Below, one piece after another: positions 15,035-58,153 of a stretch of 64,000 bases of DNA. Under the pieces are notes generated by a model. It did no database searches. It worked only from the letters and a program-made list of their open reading frames with translations, and was not told where the DNA came from. The position numbers were made by a program, and so were the translations under genes. Origin of the DNA: Bacteroidota bacterium (GTDB lineage Bacteria; Bacteroidota; Bacteroidia; JABEUT01); contig JABDHI010000001.1 in assembly GCA_013285655.1 (NCBI GenBank), forward strand, positions 21,124-85,123, given 5' to 3'. Position 1 is the stretch's first letter, and the number at the start of each line of letters is the position of its first letter.

Positions 15035-15092
15035 AGCTATATTGGAATTTATATACCCGCAAATATAGCTTAATTAACAACTAAACAAAGAT

Positions 15093-15138
15093 GCCACAGA
15101 TACACAAATATTAAAATAATAATCTGTGAATCTGTGGC
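15093..15138. repeat. GCCACAGATT-family palindromic element
   Basis: gccacagatacaca...aatctgtgaatctgtggc; right arm identical to 56982-56999. Confidence 0.85.
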
Positions 15139-15162
15139 TATCTTCCCTGAATAAGCCCGCTT

Positions 15163-31584: not shown

Positions 31585-31678
31585 TCATGGCTAAAGCCAT
31601 TAATTAGCCAACACTACCTACCCCCCAGACTTAAGTCTGGGGTAATACACGCAGATATAGTATGGGCTTTGGCCATGA
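31585..31678. repeat. GGCTAAAGCC-family palindromic element
   Basis: tcatggctaaagcc...ggctttggccatga with central ccccagacttaagtctgggg palindrome. Confidence 0.8.
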
Positions 31679-31699
31679 CTCAAAGCTTAACTCTTTGTA

Positions 31700-31837
31700 G
31701 GATTTCTCACTCCACTTTGTTTCGTTCGAAATGACAACAAGTGTAACTTCAGAAGGGGAGGGGTGGCGCGGCAAAGCCGCGCCACCCCTCCTCGATAACT
31801 ACACACTCTCTGTCATCTCGAACGAAGTGAGAGATCC
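31700..31837. repeat. REP pair (GTCATYTCGAACGAAGTGAG family) around a perfect 16-bp GC hairpin
   Basis: Arms 31700-31736 and 31811-31837; hairpin ggaggggtggcgcggc-aaa-gccgcgccacccctcc 31757-31791. Confidence 0.85.
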
Positions 31838-31898
31838 CTCAAAGTGATGATAAAATAATATTACTGTTCTCAGCGCCTTTGTGCCTTAGCGGTTAAAG

Positions 31899-34157: not shown

Positions 34158-34642
34158 AATAGAACACAGATGACACGGATTAGACGGATTTTCACTGATT
34201 TATAGATTTGATTTTCTTTTTATCATTTGTAAATAACTTTCTTTTAAACACGGCTGTTTTTCCAAAGTTCAAAAGAATACCAACCTCGGCCTCGGTTGCC
34301 TTTAAATAATTTATCAATTGAAATTCGTGTTCCTCACACAAGCCCTCTGCGGCTTTTAATTCAATAACGACATTCCCCTCGACAAATAAGTCAGCAAAGT
34401 ACTCGCCCACTTCTCTTCCTTCATAATACACCTTAATGTGCTTTTGTTTTTCAACACGCATACCCATCTTTAGCAATTCAAGATACATTGCGTTCTCATA
34501 TACTTTCTCTAAAAAACCGAATCCCAATTCATTGTATACCTTATAGAATGCCTGTATAACCTTATCCGTAATATCTTTATGCAGTAGTTCCATTGTATTT
34601 ATCCTTGTTAATCCGTTAAATCAGTGTCATCCGTGTTCTATT
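34158..34642. mobile_element. GxxExxY cassette bounded by imperfect inverted repeats (candidate element)
   Basis: Left end aatagaacacagatgacac (34158-34176) vs reverse complement of right end 34624-34642: 18/19 identical; arms built of ~9-nt units. Confidence 0.6.
34192..34593 (-). CDS. GxxExxY protein (small PD-(D/E)XK nuclease)
   Basis: LGFGFLEKVYE (GxxExxY), ADL..IELK (D..ExK), QLINY (QxxxY), GILLNFG. Confidence 0.95.
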   Translation of the reverse strand: MELLHKDITDKVIQAFYKVYNELGFGFLEKVYENAMYLELLKMGMRVEKQKHIKVYYEGREVGEYFADLFVEGNVVIELKAAEGLCEEHEFQLINYLKATEAEVGILLNFGKTAVFKRKLFTNDKKKIKSINQ

Positions 34643-42147: not shown

Positions 42148-44079
42148 ATGGTAAACATTCCTCTTTACTGTAAGTTATTGTTCCAGCGTTTGCTGTTGTT
42201 ACTGATACCCTACCAACTGTGTAGGGTATTCTTCTATGTGTACAACCATAATTACTTTGCCGATGTAACCACGCACCAGTTTCTTTACTATTGTTTTATT
42301 GGCCTCAGGTTCGATGTTCCGGCTATAATAATGACCAACCTTCCGTTTATTTTTTTAAGCCTGTTACCTTTTGGCGGGCCCGATAGTATTTATCGTAAAG
42401 TGGTTCTAAAAACGGTATTTATGGTAATAAACAGCCTTGCCATTTTCATGCAGTTTGGCGATTCTGTTTTTCTGCCTTTTGTTTACAAACGCTCTACGGC
42501 CGACATATTTAAGTTCCTCAGCCTGGGTAGCGATTCGGCCGATGTGATGCCAAGCGTGGTTAAAGATTATTGGTTCATATTGGTTTATTGGGGATTGATG
42601 ATGTTGCTTACTTACGGGCTTTATGTACTTACGGAAAGAAAGCGTCCATTCGAAAATACACGACACTATGTTGCTACTTCATTATCATACAACATTGTGT
42701 TATTAGGTATTTTGTTATTAGGCTTTAGGGGCGGCTGGCAGGCAAGGCCATTAACATTGAGCGATGCAGCTTTCTACGCTCCGGTGCACGATATCCCGTT
42801 GGTTATAAATTCACCATTTAGCATTCTAAAAACACTAGGCGTGCCACCGCTTAAAGAAAAAAAATATTTCGCCCCTGCTGCACTGCAAAAAATATACTCG
42901 CCTTATAAAGTGCCTACAAGCGGCGATTTTAAGAAGTATAACGTAGTTACTATTATACTCGAAAGCTTCTCGAAAGAATATATTGGCGCCCTCAACAACA
43001 GACACAGAACAAATACTCCTTTCCTCGATTCGCTCATTTCGCAATCGCTTACTTTCGATAATGCATTCTCTGACGGAAAAAAATCAATTGAAGGTATACC
43101 ATCGGTAACGGCCGGACTACCGACCTGGATGGACGAGCCTTTTATAATATCTGACTATAGTAAGGACAGTACAAACTCCTTAGCCGGTTTATTAGGCGAA
43201 GTGGGCTACACTACTGCATTCTTCCATGGCGGAAGTAACGGCACCATGGGCTTTACCGGTTATTGCAAAAAAGCAGGTTTTAAATATTACTATGGCCGCA
43301 CAGAATACAACAACGATAAAGACTGCGAAACGTGGGGCATTTGGGATGAACCTTTCTTTCAATACTTTGCTAAGAATTTAGATACCCTGCACAAACCATT
43401 CTACTCAGCCATATTCTCGCTTTCCTCACATCACCCATTCCTAATACCTGATAAGTACAAGAATCAGTTTCCGCGCAAGGGCAAGGAAATGGAGATATTG
43501 AAGTGCGTACGCTATAGCGATATGGCTTTAAAAGAGTTCTTTAAAACAGCATCGCAAAAGCGTTGGTTTGATAGTACTTTGTTTGTATTGGTGGCAGACC
43601 ATGCCGGCCCAAGTGAGGACCCTTATTATTCGAACCGGGTGGGCATGTATGAACTGCCTATAATATTTTACATGCCGCATTCAAACCTGAAAGGCATATC
43701 GCACACCACCATGCAGCAGATAGATATTATGCCAACTATATTGGGTTACTTGCACTACCCACATCCTTACTTTGCCTTTGGCAACAATGCTTTCGACTCG
43801 AGCGCCAATCACTTTGCGGTTAACTATATAAACGATGTGTATGAGGTGTGTCAAAACCCATATTGCCTACAGGTAGAAGGTAGCCGTGGTACCTACTTAT
43901 ATAATTACCAAAAGGATAGTATGCTTACCCACGATCTATCAAAATCAAAACCACACCTACGCGATTCGTTAGCTACTTTATTAAAGGCAGTTATACAGAC
44001 CTACAACTCTTCGGTAATCAATAACGTGCTATACATAAAAAAGGGAGCCTCACCGGCCCCCTCAGTTTCAATAAAATAA
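42148..44079 (+). CDS. LTA synthase / sulfatase family membrane protein
   Basis: N-terminal TM bundle, IILESFS, LSSHHPF, VADH, QIDIMPT. Confidence 0.9.
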   Translation: MVNIPLYCKLLFQRLLLLLIPYQLCRVFFYVYNHNYFADVTTHQFLYYCFIGLRFDVPAIIMTNLPFIFLSLLPFGGPDSIYRKVVLKTVFMVINSLAIFMQFGDSVFLPFVYKRSTADIFKFLSLGSDSADVMPSVVKDYWFILVYWGLMMLLTYGLYVLTERKRPFENTRHYVATSLSYNIVLLGILLLGFRGGWQARPLTLSDAAFYAPVHDIPLVINSPFSILKTLGVPPLKEKKYFAPAALQKIYSPYKVPTSGDFKKYNVVTIILESFSKEYIGALNNRHRTNTPFLDSLISQSLTFDNAFSDGKKSIEGIPSVTAGLPTWMDEPFIISDYSKDSTNSLAGLLGEVGYTTAFFHGGSNGTMGFTGYCKKAGFKYYYGRTEYNNDKDCETWGIWDEPFFQYFAKNLDTLHKPFYSAIFSLSSHHPFLIPDKYKNQFPRKGKEMEILKCVRYSDMALKEFFKTASQKRWFDSTLFVLVADHAGPSEDPYYSNRVGMYELPIIFYMPHSNLKGISHTTMQQIDIMPTILGYLHYPHPYFAFGNNAFDSSANHFAVNYINDVYEVCQNPYCLQVEGSRGTYLYNYQKDSMLTHDLSKSKPHLRDSLATLLKAVIQTYNSSVINNVLYIKKGASPAPSVSIK

Positions 44080-55470: not shown

Positions 55471-56342
55471 AGCTTCGGAAATATCTTCAGGCTCATATCG
55501 AGGCTCTTAACACTGTGGGTAAGCGCACCTACCGAAATATAGTCGACGCCCGTTAATGCATATTGCCTGAGGTTGGCTTTGGTTACACCACCCGACCCTT
55601 CGGTCTCGTATTTGCCATTTATAAGCTTAACAGCTTTTGTCATTTCAGCGGGAGTAAAATTATCGATGAGTATGCGTTGTATGCCACCCACTGCCAATAT
55701 TTCTTTTATCTCCTGCATGCTGCCTGCTTCAATCTCAATATCGAGTTTCTTTTTGTTTTGCTTTAGGTACTTGTGTGTAGCATCTAATGCCTGCTTCACT
55801 CCTCCCGCACATTGTACGTGATTGTCTTTTATCAGAATCATATCATACAATCCCCAACGGTGGTTGGTTGCCCCACCAATATGCACGGCCCATTTTTCGA
55901 GCATACGCATACCGGGCGTTGTTTTACGGGTATCGAGCACTTTGGCTTTTGTGCCTTTACATAATTCGGTAAGTTCGTGCGCTTGGGTTGCAATACCACT
56001 CATACGCTGCATGCAGTTAAGCACAAACCTTTCAGCCGTTAATAACGATCGTGCAGGGCCCTTTACATAGAAAGCTATATCGCCGGTTGTAACCTTGGCG
56101 CCTTCCTTCATTTTAACCTCAACCTTTATCTTCTTATCTACTTTTTTAAATATCATCTGTGCCAGTTCAATACCGGCAATAATGCCGGTATCTTTCACCA
56201 ATAGCTTGCCCTCGGCTTGGGTGGTGGCTTTAATGGTAGCGAAGGAAGTATGGTCGCGTTCGCCAATATCTTCTTTAATAGCATTATCTATAAATGCATT
56301 TAATTGCTTTGTAAAAGCCGGGGTGTGGAATATGTCGCGCAT
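55467..56342 (-). CDS. nadC: Nicotinate-nucleotide diphosphorylase (quinolinate PRTase)
   Basis: RMSGIAT, DTRKTTPG, HRWGLYD, IKDNH, LIDN; start 56342 (ORF track 56459). Confidence 0.97.
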   Translation of the reverse strand: MRDIFHTPAFTKQLNAFIDNAIKEDIGERDHTSFATIKATTQAEGKLLVKDTGIIAGIELAQMIFKKVDKKIKVEVKMKEGAKVTTGDIAFYVKGPARSLLTAERFVLNCMQRMSGIATQAHELTELCKGTKAKVLDTRKTTPGMRMLEKWAVHIGGATNHRWGLYDMILIKDNHVQCAGGVKQALDATHKYLKQNKKKLDIEIEAGSMQEIKEILAVGGIQRILIDNFTPAEMTKAVKLINGKYETEGSGGVTKANLRQYALTGVDYISVGALTHSVKSLDMSLKIFPKL

Positions 56343-56359
56343 AGGTGTCAAAACAGGGA

Positions 56360-56376
56360 TATATTTGTCAAAAATA
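56360..56376. promoter_or_regulatory. Overlapping divergent -7 elements for rlmH (+) and nadC (-)
   Basis: TATATTTG (56360-67, +) and TATTTTTG (56369-76, -). Confidence 0.65.
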
Positions 56377-56385
56377 TAGCATTTA

Positions 56386-56853
56386 ATGAAAGTAACGCTA
56401 ATAGCCATCGGCGACCACGAAGACAAATACCTGGCAGAAGGTTTCGACCTGTATGCCAAACGCCTGCAACACTATATAGCGTTCGATATGCAGACCATAC
56501 CGACCTTAAAGAAAAAAGGCCAAAGCAAAGAAGCCATTATGCAAGCCGAAAGCAAAGAGATATTGAAAAAACTTGCTCCGGGTGACTTGTTGATATTATT
56601 GGATGAAAAAGGCAAAGAATATTCATCAGTGGAACTGGCTAACCAAATGCAGAAGTATTTTAACATGCCGGGTAAACGCATGTTCTTTTTAATTGGTGGC
56701 GCTTTTGGCTTTGCACCCGAAATTTATGCAAGGGCCAACCAAAAAATATCTATGTCGAAGTTGACCTTTAACCACCAAATGGCGAGGTTGTTCTTTTTAG
56801 AGCAGTTTTACAGGGCTATGACTATATTAAAGGGAGAACCTTATCACCACTAA
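56386..56853 (+). CDS. rlmH: 23S rRNA pseudouridine-1915 N3-methyltransferase
   Basis: LLDEKGK, FLIGGAFGF, EQFYRA...GEPYHH. Confidence 0.96.
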   Translation: MKVTLIAIGDHEDKYLAEGFDLYAKRLQHYIAFDMQTIPTLKKKGQSKEAIMQAESKEILKKLAPGDLLILLDEKGKEYSSVELANQMQKYFNMPGKRMFFLIGGAFGFAPEIYARANQKISMSKLTFNHQMARLFFLEQFYRAMTILKGEPYHH

Positions 56854-56865
56854 TTAAGTGAAGAG

Positions 56866-57076
56866 TAGAACACAGATAAAACAATAAGTACAATGCCACA
56901 GATTCACAGATTAGTATTGTCTTTGATATGTTCAGTCAATTTTCACAGATTAGTATTAACACACATAGCGTAGCTATTTATAATCTGTGAATCTGTGGCA
57001 ATCTGTTTAAAATAAAATGGGAATTAAAAATAAAATCAGCGTACATCAGCCTAATCCGTGTCATCCGTGTTCTATT
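56866..57076. repeat. Gene-less element with GxxExxY-type ends and a nested 20-bp inverted repeat
   Basis: tagaacacagat at 56866; 57058-57076 identical to 34624-34642; nested IR 56894-56913 / 56981-57000. Confidence 0.85.
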
Positions 57077-57079
57077 GGT

Positions 57080-58153
57080 ATGTGTATTCTATTCGCGACT
57101 CTATTTTTAAACCTCTCAGCATTTGCTCAAAGCCCGCACAAGAGCAACGAATGGCTTAAGGGTTTACCTGATTCTATTTCAATTGGAGACATTAACCTGC
57201 CGGGATCACATGATGCTGTAGCCATCAACAAACATCATAACACGCCTTACTCTTGCCATAGCACTACTATTCCAGAACAGTTAGAAGCCGGTATTAGGTT
57301 ACTTGACATACGGATAAAAGTGAAAGGCCATAATCCTAATTACAGCTTTGCTACCTGCCACGGAAAATTTTTTGGTGGCTCATTACACTTTAACGAATAT
57401 CAGTCACTGAAATCGGTTTTAGATGAGTGCAGTGCTTTTTTAAAGAATAACCCGAGTGAGTTTATTATAATGATGTTGAAGATAGATGACTGGAATGGGA
57501 AAGATAAAGAAGGAATGTATGAGGCATTAGATTCTCTTTTATTTTCCGCATCTACTAACTATCCTATTTATAACACAGGCGATGCCGACCTTCCCTCACT
57601 TGGTAGCTTGCGTGGTAAAATATACTTGGTTAGCCGGATAGATGATACCCGCGAATTTGGTATACCTGTTGAATTCCCAAATAACACGGCCGACCTCATG
57701 CCACCTATCGAAACGCACCTAATTCACCCACAAGAAGGTGAACAGTCAGCCGTTTTCAGAAAGATAAGAGCTTACCCTATTTACATACAAGACCAGTATA
57801 AAAAACTGGGCCACCATGAAGCGCAGGCAAAACTTGCTTTGGTAGAACAAACCATACCCGTTAAAAAGAAAGGCGATGGAGAAGTAGTTTTAAATTACAC
57901 TACTGCAAGGCGTGGCTTTATGCTTTTATATAAAGTATATATACAAGATAGTGTGCTCAACTATTTTGGATCACGTGACATTTCTGCCAGGCCCATAAAC
58001 TTTGGCTGGACCATGTTGGATTACGAAAACTGGACCTACCCAACAGACAAGTATAGCGACCTTAATCTTATTAAGCTCATCATTTCATCCAACTTCCAAT
58101 ACGCTGACTATCCTGAAAAGTTTAAAGTATTAAAGGGTGAGCATAAGCAATAA
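57080..58153 (+). CDS. Secreted phosphatidylinositol-specific phospholipase C (PI-PLC X domain)
   Basis: LPGSHDA and TCHG catalytic His pair, QLEAGIRLLDIR, YIQDQY; start 57080 (ORF track 57017 includes translated repeat). Confidence 0.85.
   Translation: MCILFATLFLNLSAFAQSPHKSNEWLKGLPDSISIGDINLPGSHDAVAINKHHNTPYSCHSTTIPEQLEAGIRLLDIRIKVKGHNPNYSFATCHGKFFGGSLHFNEYQSLKSVLDECSAFLKNNPSEFIIMMLKIDDWNGKDKEGMYEALDSLLFSASTNYPIYNTGDADLPSLGSLRGKIYLVSRIDDTREFGIPVEFPNNTADLMPPIETHLIHPQEGEQSAVFRKIRAYPIYIQDQYKKLGHHEAQAKLALVEQTIPVKKKGDGEVVLNYTTARRGFMLLYKVYIQDSVLNYFGSRDISARPINFGWTMLDYENWTYPTDKYSDLNLIKLIISSNFQYADYPEKFKVLKGEHKQ

Follow-up and report, generated by a model that had tools for sequence, protein, structure and literature searches.

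A family B hairpin nested within a family A repeat in the rlmH–PI-PLC spacer of a Bacteroidota genome

The window analysed here is a 64,000-nt stretch of contig JABDHI010000001.1 (assembly GCA_013285655.1) from a Bacteroidota bacterium. In it, the spacer between rlmH and the gene for a secreted PI-PLC X-domain protein includes approximately 210 nt (56866-57076) occupied by two non-coding hairpin repeats, the inner one nested in the outer. Both hairpins are made of arm sequences that bracket small GxxExxY nuclease genes at other loci. The GxxExxY proteins (PF13366) form a very large family, for which we know of no function and, to our knowledge, of no activity. How did one gene-less hairpin of this kind come to lie within another? 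A sequence-only reading of the locus had proposed that a related element inserted into a gene-less copy of the cassette; its observation is confirmed below, and its interpretation is partly supported.

The window belongs to a 2.69-Mb assembly that is 69% complete (G000), and the main comparison is with a sister species (G014, 86% complete). All genomes used are metagenome-assembled and incomplete, so that every count given here is a lower bound.

Layout of the composite and its two repeat families

The composite begins 12 nt 3' of the stop codon of rlmH (56386-56853, + strand; NCBIfam RlmH models, E 1e-59). By alignment with contigs L104 and L105, the intervening nucleotides (56854-56865, TTAAGTGAAGAG) are the remnant of a GTGAARAG unit array, which occupies the entire spacer at the empty site of relatives and is a dispersed repeat in G000. 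The outer left arm (56866-56877, + strand) comprises only the terminal unit of the family A CAC subtype, TAGAACACAGAT, which is identical at 12/12 positions to the left end of the reference cassette (34160-34171), as had been claimed from the sequence alone. Past these 12 nt the match to the family is at chance level: the whole left arm region has 22/47 identities, versus 38/47 for the outer right arm against the cassette left arm. The identical truncation to the terminal unit is seen in the related contig L103. A linker, AAAACAAT, is followed by AAGTACAA (together 56878-56893), the latter being a left flank common to one subfamily of B; the AAGTACA 5' of the B arm is also found at G014:C36 and G014:C28.

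The inner hairpin is delimited by a perfect 20-nt inverted repeat. Its left arm (56894-56913, + strand; TGCCACAGATTCACAGATTA) contains two CACAGATT units and is the exact reverse complement of the two-unit right arm (56981-57000, - strand). A third B unit, TTCACAGATTAGTATT, lies between them (56942-56957, + strand) and is an exact copy of 56903-56918. This 16-nt repeat, at 56903 and 56942, had been described as an internal duplication; it is present, but it is mainly a third unit typical of one B subfamily, which occurs at the corresponding position in G014:C36, G014:C28 and a gene-bearing cassette of another congener, G003. The B loop also holds a small palindrome, ATAGCGTAGCTAT (56965-56977), which also occurs in G014:C28:38.2k and is retained in L102 and L103.

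An AT-rich spacer (57001-57034), which includes the ATG at 57017 and is weakly similar to the cassette stretch encoding the C-terminal tail, leads to the outer right arm (57035-57074, - strand). This arm has four units (ATCAGCG, ATCAGCC, ATCCGTG and ATCCGTG, then TTCTA), contains a 23-mer 1-2 mismatches from the cassette arms, which places the outer arms in the cassette's family, and is 80% identical to the cassette end over 65 nt. The last 19 nt (57058-57076, GTGTCATCCGTGTTCTATT) are identical to 34624-34642 at 19/19 positions, the final TT lying outside the element. None of 100 shuffles of the window reached the real number of arm matches, an exact 12-mer on the right strand and within 300 nt of the right arm is expected by chance approximately 3e-5 times, and reversed-pattern controls gave 0-1 matches per genome versus tens of real ones. 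These three controls exclude chance as the source of the arm matches at the rlmH site.

The composite also affects the annotation of the downstream gene (57080-58153, + strand; Pfam PF00388). Gene callers start this gene at ATG 57017, as in the gene call of L031, which places the outer right arm within the open reading frame. In L002, L104 and L105 the N-termini of homologues correspond to ATG 57080 and open straight into the signal peptide; the true start is therefore likely to be ATG 57080. Starting at 57017 adds 21 residues (MGIKNKISVHQPNPCHPCSIG, 57017-57079) that are missing from the homologues at empty sites; the 57017-57079 frame is open in L102 and L103, with Cys>Tyr changes. ATG 57017 is probably a mis-called start, and such composites can thus mislead gene callers, here into a false 21-codon N-terminal extension.

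The family A arm reads T[AG]GAACRCNGATGACRCNGATT and has four units, with the consensus T[AG]GAAC-RCNGAT-GAC-RCNGAT-T..., that is, a terminal T[AG]GAAC followed by phased CRCNGAT units. The outer element belongs to this family, with four units in its right arm and the terminal unit alone in its left. The reference gene-bearing cassette (34160-34640, - strand; gene 34192-34593; TIGR04256 E 5e-39, PF13366 E 4e-40) is located 22 kb upstream of the composite. It is one of two gene-bearing A cassettes in G000, the other being at C55:212-662, and these hold the only TIGR04256 genes found in that genome. They represent the two subtypes of the family, GAACAC (window) and GAACGC (C55), with one gene-bearing copy each.

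Family B has the arm GCCACAGATTCACAGATTA. Its arms bracket a GxxExxY gene at G003:C67:42107-42586 (coding sequence 42166-42567), the product of which is 30% identical to the GxxExxY protein of the window and keeps the invariant residues of the family; B is therefore a sister cassette family, which bears out the view of the inner hairpin as a member of a separate sister family. The inner hairpin belongs to B by its perfect 20-nt pair, although the only gene-bearing copy is that of G003:C67. Searches of G000 (69% complete), G014 (86% complete) and G010 turned up no GxxExxY gene with B arms. The alignment between the inner element and the interior of the G003 cassette is unconvincing beyond the arms and the third unit, and so the inner hairpin is not claimed as a deletion derivative of that cassette.

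In G000, copies without a gene predominate. They comprise at least 7 A pairs of 84-108 bp (C3, two; C26; C28, two; C45; C114) plus several solo arms, at least 7 B pairs of 50-165 bp plus solo arms, and at least 3 A[B]A composites, versus the 2 gene-bearing A cassettes. A search for gene-less paired arms less than 300 bp apart thus found them to be common elsewhere in the genome, so that the left end cannot be dismissed as a chance 12-mer in a genome devoid of other such pairs. Members of both families fit tightly into short gaps, with a stop or start codon 0-14 nt away, in co-directional, convergent and divergent gene pairs. Across 18 genomes of the genus, four contain 18, 32, 35 and 35 B arms and the remaining fourteen contain 0-4.

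Other GxxExxY genes of the genus are flanked by different unit arrays. At G014:C2:93552-93987 (L138 203-638), a third family of cassette has TTCACCACAGATTACACAGAT arms, which share a CCACAGATT core with family B; two such arms occur in G000 (C28:9543 and 9702). G003:C67 also has a partial second copy approximately 220 nt upstream of the cassette (L036 860-910 and 1555-1595), which repeats the final codons of the B-armed gene and its right arm.

Nesting of family B in family A and the history of orthologous sites

B sequence was found inside A, or replacing part of it, at five sites (six copies) in G000 and G014, one site being common to both. The G000 sites are the rlmH site (C1), C38:4049-4270, where both A arms are complete and B sits exactly at the apex, and C11:51205-51318, where a lone, perfect B right arm lies in the loop of a complete A hairpin. 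The G014 sites are C6:2961-3153, which is the orthologue of the C38 site, C28:17.3k, where one A arm is reduced to the terminal unit beside B as at rlmH, and C28:38.2k, which has B and an A right arm only and is the orthologue of a plain B hairpin at 15092-15139 of the window. The reverse arrangement, A inside B, was never seen in the genomes surveyed for nesting. Co-location of A and B is significant by Fisher's test on rough locus counts (p ~2e-4 in G000 and ~3e-5 in G014), and is ~30-fold above random intergenic expectation when rough counts of intergenic regions are used. Nesting is genuine, recurrent and one-way. The earlier proposal that sister families target each other is too strong in this light, as B lies in A at five sites, A in B at none, and all of these are in G000 and G014.

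In G003 and G010, where both families are present, nested B was found at 0 of the 51 B loci surveyed; one was adjacent to A. Exact CAC-type A arms number 5 in G000 and 21 in G014, versus 3 and 2 in these two congeners. Nesting thus occurs only in the lineage where arms with the CACAGAT unit of B are plentiful. With five sites only, the tie between nesting and an abundance of CAC-type arms is suggestive.

The history of the rlmH site was followed in relatives. The closest genome with equal gene order is G014 (RlmH 95% identical), in which the spacer is ~36 nt of GTGAAAAG units and holds no element. A scan of metagenomes with the PI-PLC protein gave four informative contigs, L102-L105, of which L105 is G014. 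The composite is present in L102 (neighbour protein 96% identical), whose contig begins within it and has a B right arm of one unit, and in L103 (89%), where it is full, with the one-unit A left arm, the linker and the right junction as in the window. The L103 copy has one unit only in its B left arm, two uncompensated G>A changes in its A right arm, and an extra unrelated hairpin to its left. The site is empty in L104 (73%) and L105 (68%). In addition, a second JGI sample, in a contig found via the exact RlmH protein, has an identical copy over the 401 nt compared (window 56800-57200). These comparisons show that the composite has been vertically inherited in at least three related populations, with point substitutions and gain or loss of single 8-nt units.

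Presence and absence at the rlmH site, which the sequence-only reading had proposed to compare across strains, vary among relatives, but the outer and inner elements do not vary separately: neither an outer-only nor an inner-only state was found in the relatives and contigs compared. BLAST of the 211-nt composite against 18 genomes of the genus returned arm-length matches only, and no second full copy.

An array of the form AAAGTGAAAAGTGAA[AT]AGCTAAAAG, with a period of 8, occupies the rlmH/PI-PLC spacer of L104 and L105, where the composite is absent. In G000 this one-armed array is dispersed over at least 10 loci (C6:19032, C14:14242, C20:22157, C37:20710 and 23465, C57:4425, C34:8430 and others), and no inverted partner was seen. 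In seven congeners (L003-L008), what follows the rlmH stop codon changes from species to species, almost every one having its own hairpin or unit-array family there, with units that include AATATCGAA, CACAGAG, TTAAGATTT and CTCTCCC/GGGAGAG, and the downstream gene order varies. The position looks like a hot spot of hairpin turnover.

A stepwise series is available at the C11 site. It is empty in G012 (TAA-A-ATG), it holds an A hairpin alone, of 85-113 nt, in G011, G001 and G014, and in G000 the loop of the A hairpin contains a perfect B right arm. As a comparison of sequences, this series is direct comparative support for B sequence landing in a pre-existing A hairpin. The part of the earlier interpretation in which a related element entered an A copy is upheld at C11; at the rlmH site, it lacks the outer-only or inner-only state.

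Several details of the C11 orthologues (L126-L130) may be added. The terminal TAG of the A hairpin is the stop codon of the upstream gene in G000, G014 and G011, and in the empty G012 site the TAA of the upstream gene lies one base before the next ATG. Within any one copy the two arms have the same subtype (CAC or CGC), but that subtype is not constant across species, a pattern suggestive of concerted change or replacement.

For C38, G000 and G014 have the composite and G015, G011 and G007 have an empty site; no A-only or B-only intermediate was found in the relatives compared. Among G014 B loci with orthologues of both flanks in G000, 4/13 are shared and 9/13 are not, some of the latter being clean absences; B has therefore been gained or lost since the two species split. 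At G014:C6:70090 (L044), two genes are separated by a B hairpin of 152 bp and ~45 nt of additional flank; their orthologues overlap by ATGA at G000 C11:39173-39220. The window also has large GC-rich palindromes at 31600-31840 (CCCCCCAGACTTAAGTCTGGGG, and GGGGTGGCGCGGCAAAGCCGCGCCACCCC in a longer inverted repeat), at a position where G014 has an A[B]A composite.

Conservation of the composite and explanations for its origin

Between the window and L103, the composite is identical at 182/199 aligned positions (91.5%). The fourfold-degenerate sites of the two flanking genes are 68% and 51% identical in the same comparison (binomial p ≤ 3e-15), and third positions in the 150 nt on each side of the composite are 81% and 70% identical. 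By a hand count on this alignment, the non-repeat interior has ~13 differences in 116 positions. Because 91.5% identity is set against 51-68% at fourfold sites, the composite is not freely decaying. Recent recombination was rejected as the cause of this conservation, the adjacent coding sequence being less similar and the left junction being different. A small conserved open reading frame within the composite was likewise rejected, as indels of 8 nt and 1 nt separate the populations.

The arms appear to be held to a sequence. Between G000 and G014, the B arm is identical at 20/20 positions, the third-codon identity of the flanks is 0.49 and the loops are unalignable. Among 38 B pairs, there are 42 deviations from consensus in one arm versus 1 compensated change; each B arm is therefore held to a sequence and not to its pairing partner. 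The outer stem offers one informative substitution only for compensatory change. Two inverted repeats that are separated by a short spacer and predicted to fold as a hairpin are a feature of these elements, with folds at z -4.2 to -6.9; the composite has a predicted RNA fold of -57 kcal/mol (z -4.2), and the inner hairpin alone has z -6.5.

The composite is a family A (CAC-subtype) element with a family B hairpin, of the subfamily with a third internal unit, inside it. It is probable, though by no means certain, that it arose in two steps by break-and-copy. Most likely, an A hairpin would first have taken the short rlmH/PI-PLC spacer. B sequence would then have landed within that hairpin, and three of the four units of the A left arm would have been lost at the landing or later. 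The unit repeated in the arms of both families, C-R-C-N-G-A-T, may be a recognition site for sequence-specific proteins, of which the cognate, putative PD-(D/E)XK nucleases of the GxxExxY family are the most plausible. Recognition of units is preferred to base-pairing because the deviations in B arms go uncompensated (42 vs 1). Spread would proceed by a gene-conversion-like break-and-copy process at gene boundaries and existing hairpins, as opposed to cut-and-paste transposition. Several findings weigh against this explanation: the B sequence that arrived at C11 is a single arm and not a hairpin; the rlmH and C38 sites have no intermediates and could have been filled in one piece; nesting is missing from the 51 B loci of G003 and G010; and no B-armed gene was found in the 69%- and 86%-complete G000 and G014, so that a B-specific reader is hypothetical in these genomes. 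The junction itself, which runs TAGAACACAGAT, AAAACAAT, AAGTACAAT, has no microhomology that would explain a copying event. Template switching at the common CACAGAT unit was considered and rejected, as the junction sequence is unfit for it.

A more specific proposal is that B elements home into sister A hairpins, with which they share the CACAGAT unit. Here, a B-type GxxExxY nuclease, or a relative such as the CCACAGATTACACAGAT-armed one of G014, would cut CAC-type A arms, and repair would copy B into the break. Nuclease-hairpin elements would then parasitise each other hierarchically, and the cut-and-copy cycle, as opposed to host selection, would keep the arms near consensus. If homing of this kind occurs, it would account for the one-way nesting, the restriction to the CAC-rich lineage and the cutting of A arms to the terminal unit beside B. 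Taken whole, the proposal is improbable.

The two-step, break-and-copy origin has to be weighed against arrival of the composite as one unit, in which A was mobilised by its outer arms with the B hairpin as cargo in the loop. The jump from empty site to full composite in the rlmH and C38 series would suit such an event, as would the fact that cassettes carry their cargo gene in the A loop and the presence at G014:C28:38.2k of this same B subfamily with an A right arm at similar spacing. Against it, no second full composite was returned by BLAST in the 18 genomes, and the three composites of G000 share only arms. Moreover, with a single-unit left arm the present composite is without a normal outer arm pair, and the C11 series demonstrates that stepwise assembly occurs. 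We regard one-piece arrival as rather unlikely. Alternatively, no targeting may be involved, with short gaps at stop codons acting as general hot spots, in which unrelated hairpin families accumulate, displace each other and decay, and B falling between A remnants by coincidence. In favour of this, at least 5 unrelated hairpin or unit-array families lie downstream of rlmH in seven congeners, L103 gained another hairpin to the left of the composite, G000 has quite different palindromes at the G014:C28:17.3k site, A and B are adjacent and not nested in G014:C69 and G010:C14, and solo arms are as common as pairs (53 vs 36). Coincidence fits poorly, however, with three copies in which B lies between two full A arms (G000:C38 and its orthologue G014:C6) or in the loop (C11), with nested arrangements outnumbering adjacent ones 6 to 1 in G000 and G014, with the single direction of nesting and with the ~30-fold excess of co-location. 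This explanation is given little credence.

The conservation raises the different possibility that the composite serves the host as a structured RNA (an insulator or processing site, a stabilising hairpin or a 5' leader), which would be compatible with a selfish origin. That the whole composite, including its non-repeat interior, is more conserved than synonymous sites speaks for a function, and so do the predicted folds (z -4.2 and, for the inner hairpin, -6.5). In empty-site relatives rlmH and the PI-PLC gene are ~36 nt apart and so are probably co-transcribed. Searches for known signals were negative: Rfam 15 gave no match at gathering score in 56000-58000 (the best was mir-172, at 19.7 bits versus a 70-bit cut-off, E 0.47), no intrinsic terminator with a GC-rich stem and T tract was present in 56600-57300, and no TAnnTTTG box was found by eye. 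Either B arm can lose a unit, arm deviations are uncompensated and family members also lie in divergent promoter gaps, all of which count against an RNA held by the host, and of the explanations considered this one appears very unlikely. A sigma-70-like site, TTAACA-17-TATAAT, occurs at 56956-56984; this consensus is without known relevance to Bacteroidota promoters.

Relation to described repeat systems

REP sequences and REPINs with their RAYT genes (PMC3116915, PMC3333891) are the closest described system, but membership fails. Like the hairpins described here, they are short, mostly gene-less intergenic palindromic repeats, with inverted pairs that fold as a hairpin; a given sequence family accompanies a low-copy gene, which its repeats bracket, and they persist vertically for long periods with sequence near consensus. 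The bracketed gene differs, as it encodes a GxxExxY PD-(D/E)XK protein of ~130 aa here and not a Y1 HUH transposase. The arms also differ, being 3-4 phased units of 8-10 nt as opposed to a single GC-rich stem.

The locus had also been called MITE-like. As in MITEs, including nested ones, the terminal inverted repeats stand less than 300 bp apart and enclose no ORF, a longer version that carries a gene shares these ends, and one element lies within another. In contrast to MITEs, the ends vary (TA, TG or CA) and insertions are accompanied by loss or replacement of flanking bases. No target-site duplication was found between filled and empty orthologues at the rlmH, C38 and C11 sites; a TA duplication in particular was rejected, the end dinucleotides being variable and the flanks not duplicated. 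Between A- or B-type ends, no transposase was found, the only gene there being that of the PD-(D/E)XK GxxExxY protein. With neither a duplication nor a transposase, the MITE comparison holds as an analogy only.

Pneumococcal BOX elements are mosaic intergenic repeats with more than one module type, and the number of their modules varies between strains. BIMEs (PMC2817692) are similar to the present elements in being composite and intergenic, with modules of several repeat types whose number varies between strains. Their modules lie side by side in alternating orientation, whereas here a hairpin lies within a hairpin and each module family has a form with a nuclease gene.

A precedent for repeats as landing pads is provided by insertion sequences that land in REPs (PMC1525189). 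Thus IS1397 and ISPpu9/10 (PMC1525189, PMC12288879), like family B, are found preferentially inside the palindromic repeat of another family. The lander here is a gene-less hairpin or a single 22-nt arm with no transposase, and its preference is seen in one two-species lineage. Ssn GIY-YIG nucleases with their NTS/SRM repeats (PMC11893778) resemble the present case in that a small site-specific nuclease gene is tied to a dispersed short repeat that it recognises. Their fold is different, and cleavage of single-stranded DNA has been demonstrated for Ssn (PMC11893778), whereas GxxExxY proteins are not known to have an activity.

Of the few papers that full-text searches for the names of the GxxExxY family retrieved, none deals, by title and abstract, with a link of these proteins to hairpin repeats. 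What is added here is the one-way nesting of related arm families, a series from empty site to A to A with B, and conservation above that of synonymous sites. The nesting, the C11 series and the conservation constrain any mechanism. If the arms are recognition arrays of nucleases, the elements would amount to a partnership of REP/RAYT type with another enzyme at its centre. In addition, the composites mark spacers adjacent to stop codons as places of rapid structural turnover.

A link of families A and B to RAYTs was rejected for G000. Its five PF01797 (Y1_Tnp) genes (C82:2885-3229, C64:310-642, C15:6377-6721, C41:10380-10721 and C59:5230-5436) are flanked by other GC-rich hairpins and not by A or B units. 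For this, 220 nt on each side of the genes were inspected and units were scanned for over 400 nt, and the sole unit-like match was a lone CACCGAT ~300 nt from the C15 gene. Four of the five genes are RAYT-like in size and are accompanied by short GC-rich hairpins of their own, such as GTCCCnnnGGGAC and AACCCnnAAGGGGTT, so that a separate system of REP/RAYT type coexists in this genome with the GxxExxY hairpins.
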